Positions 38,575 to 46,725 are shown, numbered from the stretch's first letter. The stretch: DNA of 64,000 bases from an uncultured Alphaproteobacteria bacterium (GCA_944393215.1 CALXZL010000002.1:141226-205225); one strand, 5' to 3'. Notes: a model not told the origin generated them from the letters alone. Made by a program: numbers and translations.

Positions 38575-39642
38575 ATGTCACGTGCGGAAGACATTTTTCA
38601 AAAACTCATTTATTTCGGAGAAGATGCCATTGATGAATTTATCATCAACCAACAAACCGAAGAGCTGTTTTTGGACTTCAAGCAAGCCGTATCTGTCGGC
38701 AAAAACTTTGTAACTCTGCATAGAGATGACCGCAAAAATCTCTCCAAAGCCATTTCCGGTTTTGGCAACTCCGAAGGCGGCGTGATAATTTGGGGTGTGG
38801 ATTGCGCCCGCGATAATGAAATCGGCGATGTTGCAAAGGCCAAGGTTAAAGTCAAAAACGTGCACCGTTTTTTAAGCTGGCTGGAAAATGCCATTTCGGG
38901 CTGTACCATTCCCAGCCATAACAAAGTCAGAAATCATATCATCAGCTGTGATAAAAACGGCGATGGCTTTATTGCCACCTATATTCCGAAATCAGAATTA
39001 GCTCCTTTAATGTCCACCACCAACGGCGCCATTTACATCCGCTCCGGCTCCAACAACGTGCCTGCACCTTATTCTGTTATTGCCGGTATGTTTGGAAGAT
39101 ATCCGCAACCCAATGTGGAATTGATTCTGGCAGACAAGCAAATCAAAGTTTTGGATAATGCCGATGAAGATTTGATTTATCCGCTGAATATGAAAAATCC
39201 GCCCAAGAAATATGTCAAAATCAGCTTTGCCATCCATGCCGAAAATGTCAGTAATGTCATTGCCAGAGAGATTTATTTAACTTGCCGCACGGTCAGCACC
39301 GGAAGTGAATATAATAAAATTCGTTTTACCAATTATAATCAAATGGACTCAATCCCCGGCATTGAAAATCAGCTCAATTTGATAACCAAACCGGAATTAA
39401 GACTTCCGCCGCGCGGCATTTTCAAGTTCTGCAACGTGGATATTATATTATCACCTTTTGCCGAAGATGATTTGGTCTTAGACGGCGTGATCGGGGCTGA
39501 TGAATGCGCGCCCAAAGACTTTGACGTGCATATTGCCAAAAACAATCTGCGTTCTTTTGTCGCCAAAGTTTTAAGAAACAGCAAAAATCCCGACAAATTG
39601 TTGAACGAATTTTTCTCGGAATTTTTAATTAATATGGAATAG
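38575..39642 (+). CDS. AlbA_2 (Schlafen-like, divergent AAA) domain protein with an unknown C-terminal domain of about 220 aa
   Basis: ELFLDFKQ plus ISGFGNSEGGVIIWGVD is the diagnostic AlbA_2/Schlafen core signature (LEFK ... AFANS-GG-IIGV). The C-terminal half has no recognisable motifs. Confidence 0.7.
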   Translation: MSRAEDIFQKLIYFGEDAIDEFIINQQTEELFLDFKQAVSVGKNFVTLHRDDRKNLSKAISGFGNSEGGVIIWGVDCARDNEIGDVAKAKVKVKNVHRFLSWLENAISGCTIPSHNKVRNHIISCDKNGDGFIATYIPKSELAPLMSTTNGAIYIRSGSNNVPAPYSVIAGMFGRYPQPNVELILADKQIKVLDNADEDLIYPLNMKNPPKKYVKISFAIHAENVSNVIAREIYLTCRTVSTGSEYNKIRFTNYNQMDSIPGIENQLNLITKPELRLPPRGIFKFCNVDIILSPFAEDDLVLDGVIGADECAPKDFDVHIAKNNLRSFVAKVLRNSKNPDKLLNEFFSEFLINME

Positions 39643-39649
39643 ATAAGAG

Positions 39650-40096
39650 ATGACGGCTATTGAAATTTTTACCGACGGAGCTTGTTCCGGCAACCCCGGA
39701 GCCGGTGGCTGGGGCGTTATTCTGCGCTATGGCGAAACCGAAAAAGAATTAAGTGGCGGAGATGCGCAAACCACCAACAACCGTATGGAGTTGACCGCGG
39801 TAATAGAGGCGCTCAAAGCCTTAAAAAGAGAGTGTGAAATCACCCTTTATACCGATAGTCGTTATGTGATGGACGGTGTCAATGAATGGATGCCTAATTG
39901 GAAGAAAAACGGCTGGAAAACCACCAACAAAAAATCCGCCGTCAAAAATTTGGAACTCTGGCAAGAACTGGATAGTTTGTTACCCAAACACAAAATCAAA
40001 TGGGTTTGGGTTAAGGGACATAACGGACATCCCGAAAACGAGCGTGTAGACAAACTCGCCCGCGACGCCGCCAAAAGCTTTTTAGAAAAAGATTAA
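39650..40096 (+). CDS. rnhA: Ribonuclease HI
   Basis: [20 protein letters not shown], ...TNNRMEL, ...YTDSRYV, ...[15 protein letters not shown] give the DEDD active site and the His of RNase H. Confidence 0.92.
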
Positions 40097-40356
40097 AACT
40101 CATAAATATAAATCAAAACCAAATTGAAAATGGTCAAGATTGCCATCAAAACAGGCTCTTCACGAACGCTGGCAATTCTCTTTTGCTCATAAGAATAAAA
40201 ATAGATAAAAAAGCTATAAAGTGTCACCCATAAAGGATAAGACAACAAATTGCAAACAACAAAGAGATTCAAGAGTGATATTGAAGCATAAGCGACAAAA
40301 GCAAACAACCCCGTTCCAATGGTTTTTATTGTCCGAATATAATCCTCTGCCTGCAT
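40093..40356 (-). CDS. Small membrane protein, 87 aa, 2 predicted TM helices
   Basis: It has hydrophobic stretches. Its stop overlaps the rnhA stop in convergent orientation. Confidence 0.4.
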
Positions 40357-40539
40357 GTTTCAACTCACCTGTTATTGTAAATATGCTTGATTATAATTAA
40401 AACAATCGCTCCAATCAAGTTTTCTCTTTGGGTTACAAAACATTTTTGACAAAATTGTCTATTTTATGCTTGCCACCCTCCTCATTTTGTGATATAAACT
40501 TAAGCAGAAAAAAATATTACTAATTAAAATCATAAGTAT

Positions 40540-40917
40540 ATGGAAAAAGAAATTATTATTAAAAGAATGAAAAATGTATTGAAAGCTATCTGGTACCATG
40601 TAAAATCATGGACAACAGCATTTTTTATGATGTTTCTTATGGTCTCCGGAGTAACTGCTCCGTGGCTATTTTTTGGAAAATGGGCCGATATTATTGCAGA
40701 GATATGGCATGAAGGAAATTTACTTTACATTCCGGATTTGATAGGACTACTTGGATATGTAGCAGGAATAATTATGTTTTCTTTCGTTGCAGTTGTTGGT
40801 GCTATTGCCATAATCTACGCAAGTGGCTATATTATATACAAATTCTACGCTTATTTCTTCAAAAAAGACCGAAATGCCCTTAGGGACATCCTTGATGAGC
40901 TTGTATATAAATTCTGA
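40540..40917 (+). CDS. Small membrane protein, 125 aa, 3 predicted TM helices
   Basis: It has hydrophobic helices and lies in the insertion-like cluster between rnhA and dsbD. Confidence 0.45.
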   Translation: MEKEIIIKRMKNVLKAIWYHVKSWTTAFFMMFLMVSGVTAPWLFFGKWADIIAEIWHEGNLLYIPDLIGLLGYVAGIIMFSFVAVVGAIAIIYASGYIIYKFYAYFFKKDRNALRDILDELVYKF

Positions 40918-40995
40918 AAATAATACCACCACCTCAAAAAACTCACCTTCCGCATGGAAGATGAGTTTTTCTTTTTTAAGTCTAAAAATCTTCAA

Positions 40996-41286
40996 TCATT
41001 TTCCCAAAAATTGATACCAATTTTTAATCGCCAAATGATACAAAAACTCCCAATTTAAAAAGCATATCAACCAAGAAAAAATAAAAATAAGATTTGTTGA
41101 TACCATAAAATATTTATCTTGAAAAAACCAATTCATAATAAAATAAAATGCAATACTCATATACAGCAACACAAACAAAAAAGAAAAAGGAACAGCCTCA
41201 CTCAAACTACAAATAACAGCCCCTCCGATAGCAAAACCACTGGCATCAAGAAAAAGAGCATTCAGAATTTTCTTTAATTTTTGCAT
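40996..41286 (-). CDS. Small membrane protein, 96 aa, immediately downstream of the PG-binding glycine-zipper gene; a putative immunity protein
   Basis: It has 3 hydrophobic helices and sits 28 bp downstream of the 41314 gene on the same strand. Confidence 0.45.
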   Translation of the reverse strand: MQKLKKILNALFLDASGFAIGGAVICSLSEAVPFSFLFVLLYMSIAFYFIMNWFFQDKYFMVSTNLIFIFSWLICFLNWEFLYHLAIKNWYQFLGK

Positions 41287-41313
41287 AGCTTATTCCTTTT
41301 TCATAATATTTAA

Positions 41314-42126
41314 TTATTTGTTTTTATCTTTCTTAGAAAAGACCTCATCCCATACTTTATCGACACCTTTTCCAACACCTTCGTCCATTAAACCTCTGAC
41401 CAGAGGAGTTCCTCCTCGAGCTCCATGCAGAGATTTAACAACTTTATGCCCCAACAGAGCTCCTGTAATGCTTTTCGCTGTTGAATCTGCATAATCCGAA
41501 CTGCCGCTAGCTGAACCAACACCATATGTTATACCTGAACCAACTGCATCAAGCAAGTTTTTTCTTGCTAACTTTTGAGCTGGTGATGAAGCTCTTGTTT
41601 TGCTAAATTTTATCGGAGATGAAATAGCACCAGCCACTTCCATTCCTCCTGTTAATATCGGCGCCTTTTTATATCCCTCTTCCAAAACACTTCTTCTATT
41701 ATCACGGTATTTTTTATATCCGCGCTCAAATGCTTCAGACATACTTTCTTTTTGCTTATTCCACTTTGGATTTAAACTTCCCAAAGCATAACCGACACCA
41801 CCGATAGCTCCTTCAGCTTCATCTGCCCATCCAAAGCTTAGTCCCTGCAAACCTCCTGTTGCTCCATATTCTCCTTTTTTCAATATCTTATTAAACATAG
41901 ATTCCGTTTCACCTTTAGGTTTCATAACGCCATCTATTTTTAAATTTTTATCTTTTTGAAAAGACCTTATTCCATCAAACATTTTTGTATCGACTATGGC
42001 ATCAATTCCCCATTCAGGTTCTTTATAATAGCCAAAATTCTTTAAATGTTTTTTGACATTGATAACATCATCAGAATCAATGTCTGCTGTTGTTTCAGAA
42101 ACTTCTTTTTTCAAATTAAATGGTTG
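41314..42126 (-). CDS. Peptidoglycan-binding domain protein with a Gly-rich (glycine-zipper-like) C-terminal region and no signal peptide; a toxin or bacteriocin-like candidate. The track ORF runs to 42234; the start at 42126 has an AGGAG RBS.
   Basis: The PG_binding_1-like region is VINVKKHLKNFGYYKEPEWGIDAIVDTKMFDGIRSFQKDKNLKIDGVMKPKGET. The C-terminal Gly/Ala/Ser-rich region includes GATGGLQGLSFGWADEAEGAIGGVGYALGSL. A minus-strand terminator hairpin lies upstream at 42160..42198. Confidence 0.6.
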   Translation of the reverse strand, partial: QPFNLKKEVSETTADIDSDDVINVKKHLKNFGYYKEPEWGIDAIVDTKMFDGIRSFQKDKNLKIDGVMKPKGETESMFNKILKKGEYGATGGLQGLSFGWADEAEGAIGGVGYALGSLNPKWNKQKESMSEAFERGYKKYRDNRRSVLEEGYKKAPILTGGMEVAGAISSPIKFSKTRASSPAQKLARKNLLDAVGSGITYGVGSASGSSDYADSTAKSITGALLGHKVVKSLHGARGGTPLVRGLMDEGVGKGVDKVWDEVFSKKDKNK

Positions 42127-42258
42127 CATAAATAAAACTCCTATTAAAATTTTTAAAACAAAAAAAAGCTGATGAAAATTCATCAGCTTTAAAACGAACA
42201 CACTTATCCCAAGTGATAATTCAATATAATACAAAAAGTCTCAAAAGTCAAGGAATTT

Positions 42259-42455
42259 TTTCCTAATCCGCAAAACCTTTAATCACTTTTGTCAGCTCGT
42301 CTTCTGTCAAAATCTCGGGCAAGACCATACCGTCCGGCACACTGCGGCTAAAGATAATATAAAACGGCAAGCCGGAGCGTCCGAACTGCCGTTAGCTGAA
42401 CCAACACCATATGTTATACCTGAACCAACTGCATCAAGCAAGTTTTTTCTTGACA
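42259..42455 (-). repeat. Chimeric duplicated fragment. It is a copy of the dsbD 3' end of about 130 bp at 42259..42390 (about 95% identical to 43352..43480), joined at a 9-bp microhomology (tccgaactg) to a 62-bp copy of an internal segment of the 41314 gene (41505..41566, 1 mismatch). Together they form a small fusion ORF remnant.
   Basis: I aligned the two pairs by eye. cctaatccgcaaaacctttaatcacttttgtcagctcgtcttc[t/g]gtcaaaatctc[g/a]ggcaag... occurs at both 42259 and 43352. ccg[t/c]tagctgaaccaacaccatatgttatacctgaaccaactgcatcaagcaagttttttcttg occurs at both 42391 and 41503. Confidence 0.8.
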
Positions 42456-42574
42456 TATTAGGAATAATATCCTAAATATAATATTATCACTTAGGATAAT
42501 TGTGTCTTAAGTGATTTTTTTGCCCTGTCTAATAAACAGGGCTTTTTTTTACTATTTAACATATTGGAGGAAAA

Positions 42575-42880
42575 ATGAATTTAATACAATATATTGCACA
42601 AGCAGATCCTGAAGAAAAAATCATTTCTAGGGAAAATAATTTCATACAAAATGGAATTAATTGGTATCGCGAATATTCAAAAATAAGTAAATTAAACGAT
42701 AACAGAATTACAGATGAAAACAAACATCAATATATGAGCTGCTTAGCTGGACGAGGAGGAAAAGCAGAAGCTATTGCAGGTTGGGGAATTGGTCTTGGCA
42801 AAGAAGCCATTGATTTAACTAAAAAAACATTAAGCCCAAATGCTCGAAAAAGGTATAATGGTGTGGTAAATATTTTTTAA
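42575..42880 (+). CDS. Small hypothetical protein, 101 aa, with a glycine-zipper motif related to the one in the 41314 protein
   Basis: LAGRGGKAEAIAGWGIGLGKEAIDL resembles GWADEAEGAIGGVGYALGSL of the PG-binding protein. A GGAGG RBS precedes the start. Confidence 0.4.
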   Translation: MNLIQYIAQADPEEKIISRENNFIQNGINWYREYSKISKLNDNRITDENKHQYMSCLAGRGGKAEAIAGWGIGLGKEAIDLTKKTLSPNARKRYNGVVNIF

Positions 42881-43036
42881 AGATAGTCAAAAAGATATAA
42901 AAAACAACTGGAAAGGTTTACAATATGGACTTGAAAATAAAGGAAAATGTATAAATTTACTTGAACAAAAGCTTCCATAATTGACTATTATGAAAATATG
43001 TGAGAATATCTAAAAACAATTATAAGGTATTCTCAC

Positions 43037-43345
43037 ATGCTACAAAAAATTAAATCATTTTTTTACTGGAGCTTTTTCTTTGCAATCTTAACATCAGCCC
43101 TTGTTTTGGGCTTATTCTTTTTTATGCCTGATGAACATACATACAACACCTATCATGGAGATTTCATATATCAAAGCATCAAAATACTCTGCGGAACCGC
43201 ATATCTGATAACTCTTTTGATGCAGTTAGGCCAAAAAACTTCAAGCAAACTGAAACAATATGAAAAAGACCAATATCTTTTAATTGGCGCATCATTACTG
43301 ATAATAGAAATTTTATTTTTATCGGCAACATTACCTGAATTTTAA
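43037..43345 (+). CDS. Small membrane protein, 102 aa
   Basis: It has three hydrophobic helices and ends 7 bp before the dsbD stop in convergent orientation. Confidence 0.4.
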   Translation: MLQKIKSFFYWSFFFAILTSALVLGLFFFMPDEHTYNTYHGDFIYQSIKILCGTAYLITLLMQLGQKTSSKLKQYEKDQYLLIGASLLIIEILFLSATLPEF

Positions 43346-43351
43346 GGTTTC

Positions 43352-46057
43352 CTAATCCGCAAAACCTTTAATCACTTTTGTCAGCTCGTCTTCGGTCAAA
43401 ATCTCAGGCAAGACCATACCGTCCGGCACACTGCGGCTGAAGATGATATAAAACGGCAGACCGGAGCGTCCGAACTGGCGCATAAACTCTAATACTTTGC
43501 GGTCATAATCAGTCCAATCCACATCAATATATTTCACCTTGTAGAACTTTGCCAACTCCTCGATTTTGCTGTTGTCAAACACCGTCACGTCATTAAATTT
43601 ACAGGTCAGGCACCAATCTGCCCCCACCCGCACGATGACGATATTTCCTTCCTTCAAATAAGCATCAATCTGCGCGCGGTCAATTTTCACTTCTTTGGTT
43701 AGAGCCACTTCTGCCATATGGATTTTGAAGGATTTGTCGGCTTGATACAAGCACCCAATTGTCACGATAAGCAACAACACACTAATCACACGACGTACCA
43801 GCTTTTTGGCACTCTGGCGCACGGCTAAATCTTCATTTTGATTTTCGATTGAATCAAAAATCAAGCGCCGCATATAAAACATCAGGAGGAAGAAGGCAAG
43901 CCCTGCCCCCACCCAAAGAACCGTATGCCAATCGGTCTGCGCTTGCAAAATCGAGAGTAACCACACAATGGTTAGAATAAGCATCAAAATCATAAAGGCG
44001 CTGAGTTTTTGCATCCACGGACCGGGTTTGGGCATCAATTCTCCGAGATTCGGATAAGTTGCCAAAAGCAGATACGGCATTGCCAAACCCAAACCGACCA
44101 CTGGCAATAAGATGATGATATCCGTCATCGTGCCGGCAAGCGCAAAACCAAGTGTTGTACCAAGATAAGGCGCCGTACAAGGTGTGGCGACCAAAACAAT
44201 AAACAGCCCTGCCAAAATATTGATAAAATTATCCTGCCGCGGATCTTTATTTTTAAGCCTTTTCAAAATAAATTCCGGTGTTTTGATGTTAATCAGTCCC
44301 AAAATCTGAGCCGTAAAAAACACCATCACAATCGCCATCACCACCAAGAAATATGGGTTTTGGAATTGCATCCCCCAGCCGATTGCCACATCAACGGCTT
44401 TCAGCGCACACAACACGGCGGTTAAAATAACAAACGCCAGCATAATACCCAAAGCCGTATAAGCAAAGCTTTTGCGAATGGCTTTTTCTTCCAACGCCCC
44501 ATATCGGGTTAAGGTTAAAAATTTCAAAGACAACACCGGAAAAACGCACGGCATTAAGTTAAGAATAAATCCGCCGGCAAAAGCCATAATAATCAGCATC
44601 AGGGAAAGCGTTGGTTTATTGGCATCAAAAATGGAAGAAGCTTCGGGAACAATCTGAGTCCGTAGCATATCAAAAGAATTAATCCCGACTGTCAAACTAA
44701 ATTCTTTGCCAATAATGTTTTCTTCCGGATTCCGAACCTTCAAACGTGCAATAATCTCATCATCATTAAGCGTAATTTTCGGACGATAGAAAAGGATATT
44801 GTCTTTAGAATCAACAAATATCTTAACCTTTTCGGGATTTTTCTCGGTGTGAATAACAATTCGCAGTGTTTGAGCTCCGTTGGCATCAGTATCGACCACT
44901 GCTTTTTCAACATGTAAATTTTCATTATAAGCTTTGGGCAAATTATTATATGTGCGTTCAATAAAACTGCTGAAACCTGATCGCAGATAATCATCTCCGA
45001 CATCCAAACTCAACATCGGCTCAAATTCCACCGGATGACACTGATTTTGACCACAGATTGTGGCTTTAACATGAGCTTTGAGTTTCATCGGCTTGGTTTT
45101 ATCTTGCAAAGTAACTGCAACCGGCAAAGCAAAATTACCGACATAACCGAGAATATTATCATCCGTATTATCCACCACGCGTATGGGCATCGGCCACAAA
45201 ACTTGAGCATCCTTCACATTTTCCGAACCGGCAAAATCAAACGACGGCAACAAAATATTTTTTTCAGGACTCCACAAAAGCATATAACCGTCTTTTAATC
45301 TAAAATCCAAAACGGTTTGAATATTTTCGGAATTTATTGAAATTTCATTACTAAGCAGACGAGCATCACCATAAGCACTTTTTTGCCAACCGCCGATTCC
45401 CTTTTTGCCGGTAAAAGGATTATCATACACAATTCCGTAGAAGAAAAGCTTACTCCACTCTAACTCCTGTACCAAAGCCGAAAGGCGGAAAAATCCTTCC
45501 AAATCCTCACGTTCTTTTTGCATTTTCTTTTTATAATAAAGTTCCAGAGCTTCAAAATCGCGTGGATTATTACCATAACTCAAAACCTTCTTAAAATCTT
45601 GAATAATCAAAGGCTGATTTGATCCGGTATCAACATATTCCCAAGTTTTAGGCAAATCATAATCTTCTTCATCCACTTGCAAAGGCGGAGGAGCCGGAAC
45701 GAGCAATTTTTCTTTAATTTCATTATATTTATTTTTAAGAAAGCGATAAAACTTCACCCTGGCACGAATATCATCTGCCTTTTCTTCCTGCTCAATATCT
45801 GTTAAATCAGGATATTTTTCTCGCACCTGAGGTAAAATATCGCCATCAATTTTATCTCCGGGAAAATTTTTTTCAAAAAAATAATAATTACCGAGAATAT
45901 TACCTAATTGTTGATAAATATTAACCTCTTTATCGGCATTAACCTCTTCTTCCTCGGGCAAAAAGTCATAAACAACAGGAGATACGGTTTCTTGAGCATA
46001 AGAAACCGAAGTCATAAAAAAGCCAAAGACATAAAAGAATAATATAAATTTATTCAT
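43352..46057 (-). CDS. dsbD: Thiol:disulfide interchange protein DsbD, long form at 901 aa: periplasmic N-terminal domains, a TM core, and a C-terminal thioredoxin domain
   Basis: It has a signal peptide, a central 8-TM core with conserved Cys (NLMPCVFPVLSL; PCTAPYL), and a C-terminal thioredoxin fold with WCLTCK. Confidence 0.85.
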   Translation of the reverse strand: MNKFILFFYVFGFFMTSVSYAQETVSPVVYDFLPEEEEVNADKEVNIYQQLGNILGNYYFFEKNFPGDKIDGDILPQVREKYPDLTDIEQEEKADDIRARVKFYRFLKNKYNEIKEKLLVPAPPPLQVDEEDYDLPKTWEYVDTGSNQPLIIQDFKKVLSYGNNPRDFEALELYYKKKMQKEREDLEGFFRLSALVQELEWSKLFFYGIVYDNPFTGKKGIGGWQKSAYGDARLLSNEISINSENIQTVLDFRLKDGYMLLWSPEKNILLPSFDFAGSENVKDAQVLWPMPIRVVDNTDDNILGYVGNFALPVAVTLQDKTKPMKLKAHVKATICGQNQCHPVEFEPMLSLDVGDDYLRSGFSSFIERTYNNLPKAYNENLHVEKAVVDTDANGAQTLRIVIHTEKNPEKVKIFVDSKDNILFYRPKITLNDDEIIARLKVRNPEENIIGKEFSLTVGINSFDMLRTQIVPEASSIFDANKPTLSLMLIIMAFAGGFILNLMPCVFPVLSLKFLTLTRYGALEEKAIRKSFAYTALGIMLAFVILTAVLCALKAVDVAIGWGMQFQNPYFLVVMAIVMVFFTAQILGLINIKTPEFILKRLKNKDPRQDNFINILAGLFIVLVATPCTAPYLGTTLGFALAGTMTDIIILLPVVGLGLAMPYLLLATYPNLGELMPKPGPWMQKLSAFMILMLILTIVWLLSILQAQTDWHTVLWVGAGLAFFLLMFYMRRLIFDSIENQNEDLAVRQSAKKLVRRVISVLLLIVTIGCLYQADKSFKIHMAEVALTKEVKIDRAQIDAYLKEGNIVIVRVGADWCLTCKFNDVTVFDNSKIEELAKFYKVKYIDVDWTDYDRKVLEFMRQFGRSGLPFYIIFSRSVPDGMVLPEILTEDELTKVIKGFAD

Positions 46058-46104
46058 TAAAATACTGCCACCCGTGAAATTTTAGTTTTATAATATTATA
46101 TTTT

Positions 46105-46725
46105 ATGATATTATACAAGATAGTGTTTAAGTCAAAGAAGAAAATAGCAGGTGTTGGAATGAATAACAAGACAGATTTTTTAATCGGAAAATGCCTCGTT
46201 GCCATGCCCAATATGACCGACGAACGTTTTGCGCAAACGCTGATTTACATATGCTCCCACTCTTCGGAGGGAGCCATGGGTTTTATTGTCAATAAAAAGA
46301 TAAAAAAATTCTCTTTTGCCGACTTGGCAACCCAGCTTCCGATAACCCCGCTTCAACCGATAGCCCCGTTAGATTTGCATCAAGGCGGACCGTTGGAAAA
46401 GATTCGCGGTTTTGTTTTACATAGCACGGATTACATCAAAAAAGACACCATGGTTATAGATGAAAATATCGCCGTATCCTCTTCCATAGACATCATTACG
46501 GATATTGCTTTTGGCATTGGCCCCAAAGAAAATCTCATTGCTTTAGGCTATACAAGCTGGGGAGCGGAGCAACTTGAACGTGAAATAAAAAATAATGATT
46601 GGTTGATTATGACACCGAATACCGAACTGGTCTTCAAAACCAAAGATGAAGAAAAATGGCAAAAAGCCATAGATGAAATCGGTATAGATATTAACCGCCT
46701 ATCAACCTATGCCGGACACGCTTAA
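46105..46725 (+). CDS. yqgE: YqgE/AlgH family protein (UPF0301). The true start is probably the internal Met near 46159.
   Basis: LIGKCLVAMPNMTDERFAQTLIYICSHSSEGAMGFIVNK and LHQGGPLE are the family's characteristic motifs. Confidence 0.8.
   Translation: MILYKIVFKSKKKIAGVGMNNKTDFLIGKCLVAMPNMTDERFAQTLIYICSHSSEGAMGFIVNKKIKKFSFADLATQLPITPLQPIAPLDLHQGGPLEKIRGFVLHSTDYIKKDTMVIDENIAVSSSIDIITDIAFGIGPKENLIALGYTSWGAEQLEREIKNNDWLIMTPNTELVFKTKDEEKWQKAIDEIGIDINRLSTYAGHA

Follow-up and report, generated by a model that had tools for sequence, protein, structure and literature searches.

We describe here a toxin-like locus between the genes dsbD and rnhA in a 64,000-nt stretch of DNA (the window) from an uncultured gut alphaproteobacterium, whose nearest genomes are metagenome-assembled genomes. 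The locus contains a full-length toxin-like gene of 271 aa, and a recombination joint at which a second, displaced copy of the dsbD 3' end is fused to a fragment of that same gene. Reading from dsbD towards rnhA (Table 1), the functional dsbD end (D1a) is followed by a 102-aa gene, a frameshifted 134-aa gene with its leader (P'), the toxin-gene fragment (copy A), the displaced dsbD end (D1b), the promoter and leader of the toxin-like gene (P), and the toxin-like gene itself, which contains the fragment a second time (copy B). A series of small genes then extends to rnhA.

Table 1. Features of the dsbD-rnhA region; positions are counted from the first nucleotide of the window (ORF, open reading frame).
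Feature	Position	Strand	Basis
dsbD, 901 aa, resident	43352-46057	-	Pfam DsbD_N, DsbD_TM, Thioredoxin_7
D1a: last 129 nt of dsbD and 4 nt past the stop	43348-43480	-	Repeat search
102-aa predicted membrane protein, convergent with dsbD	43037-43345	+	ORF, hydrophobic segments
Frameshifted allele of the 134-aa gene (annotated as 101 aa, 42575-42880)	42575-42980	+	T6 versus T5 at 42873-42878
P': leader of the 134-aa gene	42453-42574	+	Conserved box 42476-42505; hairpins 42486-42515, 42522-42542
73-nt repeat, copy A: beginning of the resident orphan tail of the toxin gene (codons 189-211), rest of the tail now severed	42380-42452	-	Repeat search
Illegitimate joint, 9-bp microhomology tccgaactg	42380-42388		Junction identical in six carrier assemblies
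D1b: displaced non-functional copy, last 42 dsbD codons, stop and 4 nt	42259-42391	-	95% identity to D1a
P: toxin-gene promoter and leader	42130-42258	-	TTGACT-17-TATATT at 42251-42223; 10/12 promoter match
Full-length toxin-like gene, 271 aa	41314-42129	-	PG_binding_1, E 2e-8
Copy B of the 73-nt repeat, within the full-length gene	41495-41567	-	Repeat search, strain alleles
96-aa multi-pass membrane protein	40996-41286	-	Hydrophobic segments
Rest of variable island (125-aa and 87-aa genes)	40093-40917		Reaches rnhA
125-aa gene, membrane protein	40540-40917	+	ORF; hydrophobic segments
87-aa gene, membrane protein	40093-40356	-	ORF; hydrophobic segments
rnhA	39650-40096		

The joint is defined by two pairs of direct repeats. 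D1a and D1b form a 133-nt pair with 95% identity (7 mismatches) and a spacing of 1089, and copies A and B form a 73-nt pair with 99% identity (1 mismatch) and a spacing of 885. Both pairs are far beyond chance, because BLAST gives them E-values of 1e-53 and 2e-25, respectively. The two repeats overlap in the nonamer tccgaactg, which is found in dsbD (43469-43477) and in the toxin-like gene (41495-41503) as well. CAGTTCGGA is common to the dsbD codons for RQFG and the toxin codons for GSSD, and the sequences diverge on both sides of it; the microhomology is 9 nt exact, or 12/13 if the flanking GCGn is counted. One of the seven mismatches between D1a and D1b (at 42389) belongs to the toxin side, and the dsbD-derived part differs at 6 sites. 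An earlier reading of the sequence alone (the original prediction) had described this place as a recombination scar with a microhomology joint, with the dsbD 3' end and its stop present twice at approximately 95% identity, and had proposed a self-comparison as a check; all of this holds, and chance-level similarity is ruled out. Its count of about 6 mismatches in 128 bp is right for the dsbD-derived part and becomes 7 in 133 for the whole repeat. The toxin fragment, given there as 62 bp from codons 222-243 or so, is 73 nt long and corresponds to codons 189-211 of the 271-codon frame that starts at the ATG at 42129, the earlier numbering having been counted from an upstream TTG.

The chimeric reading frame that had been noted across the joint is present in the window (MSRKNLLDAVGSGITYGVGSANGSSDAPACRF...*, 49 codons), where it reads D1b out of frame. 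Its start codon is not kept, being ATG in some strains only and GTG, ACG or ACA in others, and for this reason we reject it as a gene and regard it as a by-product of the joint. The joint itself is identical in six contigs (L080, L081, L082, L088, L091 and L097). Because these come from separate samples, studies and projects, an assembly artefact is excluded, and the junction is a genuine recombination joint.

The two dsbD ends differ in how they vary among conspecific strains, by which we mean contigs that are 98-99% identical to the window. D1a haplotypes are separated by 0-11 nt, every difference being synonymous, whereas D1b is identical in all of the carriers of the joint compared (the window, L088, L091 and L097). 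All six of the dsbD-derived differences between D1b and D1a are also synonymous, which would happen by chance under random change with a probability of about 1.4e-4, and this suggests that not long ago D1b was still the end of a working dsbD. No sampled genome has the D1b allele (for example, CCGAGATTTTGACAGAAGACGAGCTGAC) at the functional end of its dsbD. Its invariance in carriers, the purely synonymous differences and its absence as a functional end together suggest that D1b hitch-hiked in from a genome whose toxin gene lay directly after dsbD, an arrangement that is present in another species. An exact scan of Joint Genome Institute (JGI) metagenomes for a 28-mer specific to D1b returned no match, and did not identify the donor; a scan of JGI metagenomes with the toxin protein returned no relative.

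Comparison across strains, which had also been proposed as a check, separates the conspecific contigs into two classes. Carriers of the joint are the six contigs named above, along with the partial contigs L086 and L089. Insert-free strains (L084/85, L087, L093/96, L094, L098 and L121) have the 73-nt segment only once, continuous with the toxin tail from 41494. The unit that varies is therefore 885 bp long, and is composed of 121 nt of the dsbD tail, the 129-nt promoter and leader, codons 1-188 of the toxin-like gene (42129-41568) and one copy of the 73-nt repeat. The segment between the dsbD repeats is missing from none of the conspecific contigs, and the 1089-bp unit that these repeats bound is not present in some strains and absent from others; it is the 885-bp unit that varies instead. 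The joint has a single origin, and the insert appears to be recent as well as of one origin, because D1b is identical in carriers that differ by up to 11 nt in D1a, and because the insert has 0-2 single-nucleotide polymorphisms (SNPs) among carriers, compared with 1.2-1.4% in dsbD.

Closely related strains allow the two classes to be compared directly. L087 (no insert) and L088 (insert) have no SNPs in 2561 bp of dsbD, one in 881 bp of the cassette with the 102-aa gene, the 134-aa gene and P', and none in the toxin tail and immunity gene, yet they differ at five sites just to the left of the insert (ATACA/GCA versus ACGTG/GCT). Because of these five sites, L087 is not a simple deletion product of L088, and L088 would have gained the insert on an imported tract. 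L097 and L094 differ by three SNPs in dsbD, and L097 has both the insert and a different tail haplotype (16 differences), as in a co-import. The 73-nt copies also have separate histories. Copy A in L088 and L091 contains the orphan-type alleles GCT and TAC, which are absent from every copy B, and the alleles of copy B are found in full-length genes only; the two copies come from different lineages, which argues against a duplication in place. Among the insert-free strains, L098 shows further slippage in this region, a 36-nt in-frame deletion in the 73-nt hinge between two GGTTCAG repeats.

In other species, the region between dsbD and rnhA has two principal layouts. Layout 1 (L002/L099 and L101) consists of dsbD, the 102-aa gene, the 134-aa gene, P', a toxin tail that starts where copy A starts (codon 189), and a small gene; it is also the layout of the insert-free conspecific strains, and thus the resident one in the window species and its closest relatives. 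Layout 2 (L005 and L103-L109), which belongs to a more distant species, consists of dsbD, P, a 266-aa toxin-like gene, a 109-aa gene and rnhA. Further subsets of the island modules occur in L001, L003, L007, L016, L004, L119 and L120. Orphan tails begin at codon 189 (insert-free strains, L002 and L101) or at codon 185 (L001), and each is followed by an intact small gene. The window resembles both layouts far more closely in the modules than in the flanks. Between 42258 and 41635 it differs from L005 at three positions (99.5% identity), whereas the dsbD of L005 is only about 65-75% identical, and from 43378 to 42458, which covers the 102-134-P' cassette, it differs from L002 at four positions (99.6% identity), whereas there are 9 differences over the 133 positions of the dsbD 3' end and the identity of the 5' parts is approximately 79%. 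Because the modules are so much more similar than their flanks, they would appear to move between species, with dsbD and the toxin hinge acting as recombination arms. The dsbD gene is itself a mosaic between species: relative to L002, a tract of 96-99% identity (approximately 44300-44000) lies inside a gene that is about 79% identical, and the dsbD of L016 is about 57% identical to that of the window in the 5' part, rising to 88-99% from about 43700 onward. The tracts in which island modules recombine thus have ends that lie inside dsbD.

Recombination between the dsbD repeats of the window would give an L005-type layout, and recombination between its 73-nt repeats an L002-type layout. The explanation that we prefer, and consider reasonably probable, is that the window is a co-integrate of the two alternative layouts, generated by one homologous and one illegitimate crossover and then spread. 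The recipient would have been a layout-1 chromosome with an orphaned module of toxin tail and immunity gene, and the incoming fragment would have come from a layout-2 genome, beginning in the last 43 codons of dsbD and running through P into the toxin gene. At the right end, a homologous crossover would have taken place in the toxin tail or the immunity region; this region is homologous, and in L097 it was co-imported with the insert. At the left end, the fragment would have been joined illegitimately at the 9-bp CAGTTCGGA that dsbD and the toxin hinge have in common. The net gain would be 885 bp, turning the orphan tail into a promoter-driven, full-length gene again and leaving the dead dsbD tail behind as a tag of provenance, and the product would then have spread between conspecific strains by ordinary homologous recombination. 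We infer the direction (gain into layout 1), the mechanism with homology on one side, and the uptake of foreign DNA from the pattern of these sequences.

Several observations weigh against this explanation. No donor was found in which D1b is the functional end of dsbD, the closest alleles differing from it at 4-10 sites. (L005 was considered as the actual donor and rejected, since 10 sites separate its dsbD end from D1b and the hinges differ at 7 of 73 positions.) Ordinary homology was available at both ends of the fragment (approximately 95% in the dsbD tail and 96-99% in the toxin hinge), and yet the left joint is illegitimate. The three variable sites of the 73-nt copies are shuffled, with AAC in copy A and AGC in copy B in the window and the reverse in L088 and L097, so that a later gene conversion or reciprocal exchange must be invoked, which leaves some room for a circular intermediate. 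Finally, the reciprocal scenario, in which a layout-2 recipient received layout-1 DNA, gives an identical sequence, and is disfavored only by the distribution of the layouts and by parsimony.

The leading alternative is the one in the original prediction, which we regard as improbable. In the form considered here, it starts from an ancestor with the toxin-like gene directly after dsbD, and has an inserted segment (3' sequence of dsbD, the genes for the 102-aa and 134-aa proteins, P' and a stub of the toxin gene) displace the old dsbD end, now D1b, by means of a homologous crossover in dsbD on the left and the microhomology joint on the right. Such an event yields exactly the same sequence; moreover, the near-identity to L002 within diverged flanks indicates that the 102-134-P' cassette has itself been recently mobile, and the tracts in L002 and L016 show that recombination can end inside dsbD. 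The reading of the segment of about 960 bp with the 101-aa and 102-aa genes as the insertion is not supported, as dsbD is followed directly by the 102-aa gene in all of the conspecific contigs (at least 14) and in five sister species (L001, L002, L003, L007 and L016), with no conspecific strain having dsbD followed directly by the toxin-like gene. The insertion unit was expected between the dsbD repeats, and the population is instead polymorphic for the 885-bp unit between the 73-nt repeats, the gain of which is also what distinguishes the near-isogenic L087 and L088. Similarly, the functional dsbD end, supposed to be the imported replacement, tracks the dsbD of each strain, while it is the displaced copy that is the same in all carriers. 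An integrative cassette had been suggested as one possible vehicle, next to a recombination of toxin modules. No integrase or recombinase domain was found among the island ORFs, and the flanking genes encode DUF179, dsbD, rnhA, SLFN_AlbA_2 and ispH products; because no recombinase is present, a site-specific cassette is not supported.

Less probable again, and in our view unlikely, is that the 885-bp unit moves as a circle, excised through the 73-nt repeats or, in layout 2, through the 9-bp repeats, and integrated Campbell-style into orphan tails by means of the 73-nt homology. Circles of this kind would explain both the exact coincidence of the limits of the unit with the 73-nt repeats and the exchange of the AAC and AGC alleles of copies A and B that sets the window apart from L088 and L097. 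The unit has no replication or transfer function in its 885 bp, however, and there is no evidence for circles; furthermore, the tracts imported by L088 and L097 exceed it (on the left by the region of the ACGTG start, and on the right by the tail haplotype), which fits better with the recombination of linear fragments.

A tandem duplication of the 885-bp unit in place, at the 9-bp microhomology in a layout-2 ancestor, is very unlikely. The promoter and codons 1-188 of the first copy would later have been replaced by the 102-134-P' cassette, and insert-free strains would have arisen by deletion between the 73-nt repeats. A microhomology-mediated event would indeed make the same toxin-to-dsbD joint, and the 73-nt repeats could mediate such deletions. 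Several contigs do break exactly at the repeats, with L081, L082 and L091 beginning within D1a and L090 beginning 6 nt before copy B, as they might in a confused assembly graph or with co-existing alleles; we take these breaks as a hint of within-sample heterogeneity, and they are expected if repeats or co-existing alleles branch the assembly graph. This scheme requires at least two further events on an unstable intermediate. Duplicates start out identical, whereas the dsbD copies differ at six synonymous sites and copies A and B are lineage-specific; nor are there identical adjacent copies, the sequence between the dsbD copies (102/134/P') being unrelated to that which follows D1b. In addition, the orphan junction of P' with codon 189 is found in three species with two different tails (L002, L101 and the window species), and so is older and more widespread than the joint, and the insert is far less diverse than its flanks. 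Lastly, an assembly chimera of two co-existing strains can be dismissed, for although the sequences are assembled from metagenomes and have 73-nt and 133-nt repeats at the relevant places, an overlap of 9-12 nt cannot join k-mer graphs, and the same joint was obtained with different assemblers in three flanking haplotypes.

The co-integrate that we prefer is comparable to the products of homology-facilitated illegitimate recombination (HFIR), which combines one homologous anchor with microhomologies of 3-10 bp, and has been described for natural transformation in Acinetobacter baylyi, Streptococcus pneumoniae and Pseudomonas stutzeri (PMC6382021). As in HFIR, one end would lie in extended homology (the toxin tail and immunity region) and the other is a junction between unrelated sequences at a 9-bp microhomology, within the reported range, with foreign sequence gained beside the anchor. 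It differs in that it is reconstructed here from natural sequence, with ordinary homology available on both sides, and in that the illegitimate site lies inside the homologous region, which results in a 73-nt duplication rather than a deletion. The arrangement also resembles elements that integrate at the 3' ends of genes, since a direct repeat of a gene's 3' end flanks accessory genes, but it lacks an integrase, its variable unit is not the block that the dsbD repeats enclose, and the foreign copy is the displaced one rather than the functional one. Overall, the locus exemplifies in nature two processes that are already known, microhomology-assisted recombination and the shuffling of modules, and is not a new kind of element.

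The gene that the insert would have restored has the organization of a polymorphic toxin. Its 271-aa product consists of a peptidoglycan-binding domain, a helical glycine-rich body, a hinge (residues 189-227) and a variable tip (residues 228-271), with no predicted hydrophobic segment. An AlphaFold2 model is confident only for residues 1-170, residues 173-271 having a predicted local distance difference test score below 50. Foldseek with this model recognizes the peptidoglycan-binding domain alone, and matches in NCBIfam are likewise to the peptidoglycan-binding domain only. Homologues align to the first 28-37% of the query only, at 55-70% identity, and differ in length and in their C-terminal domains, which are variously serum-amyloid-A-like, pesticin-like, glycine-rich or of other kinds. 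Three of them (P0016, P0019 and P0024) join the same N-terminal peptidoglycan-binding domain to the Pfam serum amyloid A (SAA) domain (63 bits for P0024, against a cut-off of 30.8), and the C-terminus of P0032 has a sub-threshold resemblance to pesticin or phage lysozyme. Thus, the family has a conserved N-terminus with alternative, unrelated C-terminal domains. There are also orphan cassettes of tip and immunity gene that retain an upstream stub, truncated tails with their partners being present in many strains, and the comparison with polymorphic-toxin loci that acquire orphan modules, made in the original prediction, was apt.

The tip covaries with the small membrane protein encoded downstream in 4 of 4 arrangements: tip 1 occurs with the 96-aa protein (the window and L002), and tip 2 with the 109-aa protein (L005/L103; L101, 92% identity), the two small proteins being 41% identical. 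The 96-aa gene is also kept in strains that lack a full-length toxin-like gene. The 96-aa protein is therefore a candidate for the cognate immunity protein of the 271-aa tip, and the two together form a putative toxin and immunity pair, for which the case is circumstantial. Two findings speak against such a role. In the carrier L097 (the same as L118), a TGT-to-TGA nonsense mutation interrupts codon 75 of the 96-aa gene while the full-length toxin-like gene is intact, which sits badly with a strict pairing of toxin and immunity protein, unless the protein can do without its last 22 residues or the assembly is in error. Moreover, the toxin-like protein has no signal peptide or other marker of a secretion or delivery module, PG_binding_1 being its only recognized domain, and no secretion genes occur within 6 kb of the locus or beside P0032, as judged from these neighborhoods rather than from whole genomes.

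The pattern is nonetheless that of a polymorphic toxin-immunity system, with toxicity, immunity and export all putative. Like the CdiA-CT/CdiI, Rhs and MafB systems, it has a conserved N-terminal part, a hinge, a variable tip and a covarying, immunity-like gene downstream, as well as orphans of tail and immunity gene with a hinge stub, which recombination at the hinge makes full-length. The proteins differ in being small (approximately 200-290 aa), with a tip of about 44 aa and no recognizable delivery domain. An orphan Rhs tail is reportedly activated by recombining with the resident main gene. The rebuilding of the 271-aa gene would be analogous in outcome, although here the N-terminal part and promoter would have been imported from outside, and not taken from a resident main gene. 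Activation of an orphan Rhs toxin by recombination is described by Koskiniemi et al. 2014 (PMC3967940). For the prokaryotic SAA domains of the Lipocone superfamily, Burroughs et al. 2025 (PMC12419801) predict a role as the tips of polymorphic toxins, the immunity partners being membrane proteins or lipoproteins; P0016, P0019 and P0024 have such a domain, whereas the 271-aa protein has a different, unclassified glycine-rich C-terminal part.

The second module of the locus, that of the 134-aa gene, is related to the same family. The C-terminal 118 residues of P0020 (residues 85-202) align with its product at 45% identity (E 2e-37). P0020 has PG_binding_1 in front of this domain, and the 134-aa gene is without a peptidoglycan-binding domain; the match of the 134-aa protein to the Pfam SAA model is only indirect, via P0020 and P0026. 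Removing one T at 42873-42878 restores the 134-aa protein, and all other strains and species have T5 at this position. The +1 frameshift (T6) costs the protein its C-terminal third, and is present in three independent contigs (L080-L082) of the strain type of the window. The adjacent 102-aa protein, which has no family match, is a candidate immunity partner of the 134-aa module. A cognate pairing of the two was looked for and is unsupported, the 102-aa protein having no similarity to the 158-aa protein downstream of P0020.

The leaders P and P' have a common plan in front of the 271-aa and 134-aa genes, comprising a -10 element, a conserved box, terminator-like hairpins with T runs, and a ribosome-binding site. 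The box has the consensus ATTATCACTTRGGATAAnTGTGT with the core palindrome TTATC-N6-GATAA, and its copies in P (42198-42227) and P' are inverted relative to each other (inverted repeat I1, with P and P' aligned); the 16-mer TTATCACTTRGGATAA occurs twice in the 64 kb, compared with 0.1 expected. The terminator-like hairpin of P (42165-42190) has an 11-bp stem followed by a T run, and the run at 42160-42167 is one T shorter in L081 and L082 (T7) than in the window (T8), although these contigs are otherwise identical over 2.5-3.8 kb. The conserved leader could be an operator or an attenuator-type leader. An Rfam scan of 39500-46500 gave only sub-threshold hits (GcvB, 25.7 bits against 42), so that no known RNA explains it.

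From the dsbD stop to rnhA (40093-43347), the region as a whole is a hypervariable island, with its left edge fixed 4 nt past the stop. Its four small ORFs (96, 102, 125 and 87 aa) all encode predicted membrane proteins. Breakpoints recur near 40994/40977/40936, 40572, 40383 and 40097, and the part that holds the 125-aa and 87-aa genes is retained or missing in varied combinations (L001, L004, L007, L016, L093, L098, L119 and L120); some genomes have only these two genes in the island, or nothing. Beyond rnhA, a 355-aa Schlafen/AlbA_2 protein (38575-39642, E 3e-10) is encoded between ispH and rnhA, a position that is kept in all related loci, and it may be defense-related.

For the biology of these bacteria, the scar would preserve both the direction and the source of a gene transfer, the stray dsbD tail marking a donor in which the toxin directly followed dsbD. 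The strain series suggests that uncultured gut bacteria can regain full genes from orphan toxin tails and that microhomology-assisted recombination operates among them in the wild, and toxin, immunity and promoter modules appear to cross species, being 99.5% identical between housekeeping flanks of 65-80% identity. A bolder and doubtful proposal is that the 885-bp unit, with its promoter, peptidoglycan-binding domain and helical body, is a discrete re-arming module of a new polymorphic toxin system with no secretion signal, sweeping through the gut population via the conserved hinge of any orphan tail, possibly as circles, with the dsbD-rnhA interval as a dedicated hotspot of exchange; if this were true, the module would turn immunity-only strains into producers. 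The locus also draws attention to an uncharacterized effector family, with a peptidoglycan-binding N-terminus, a variable C-terminus and small membrane partners, that may have a part in interbacterial antagonism.

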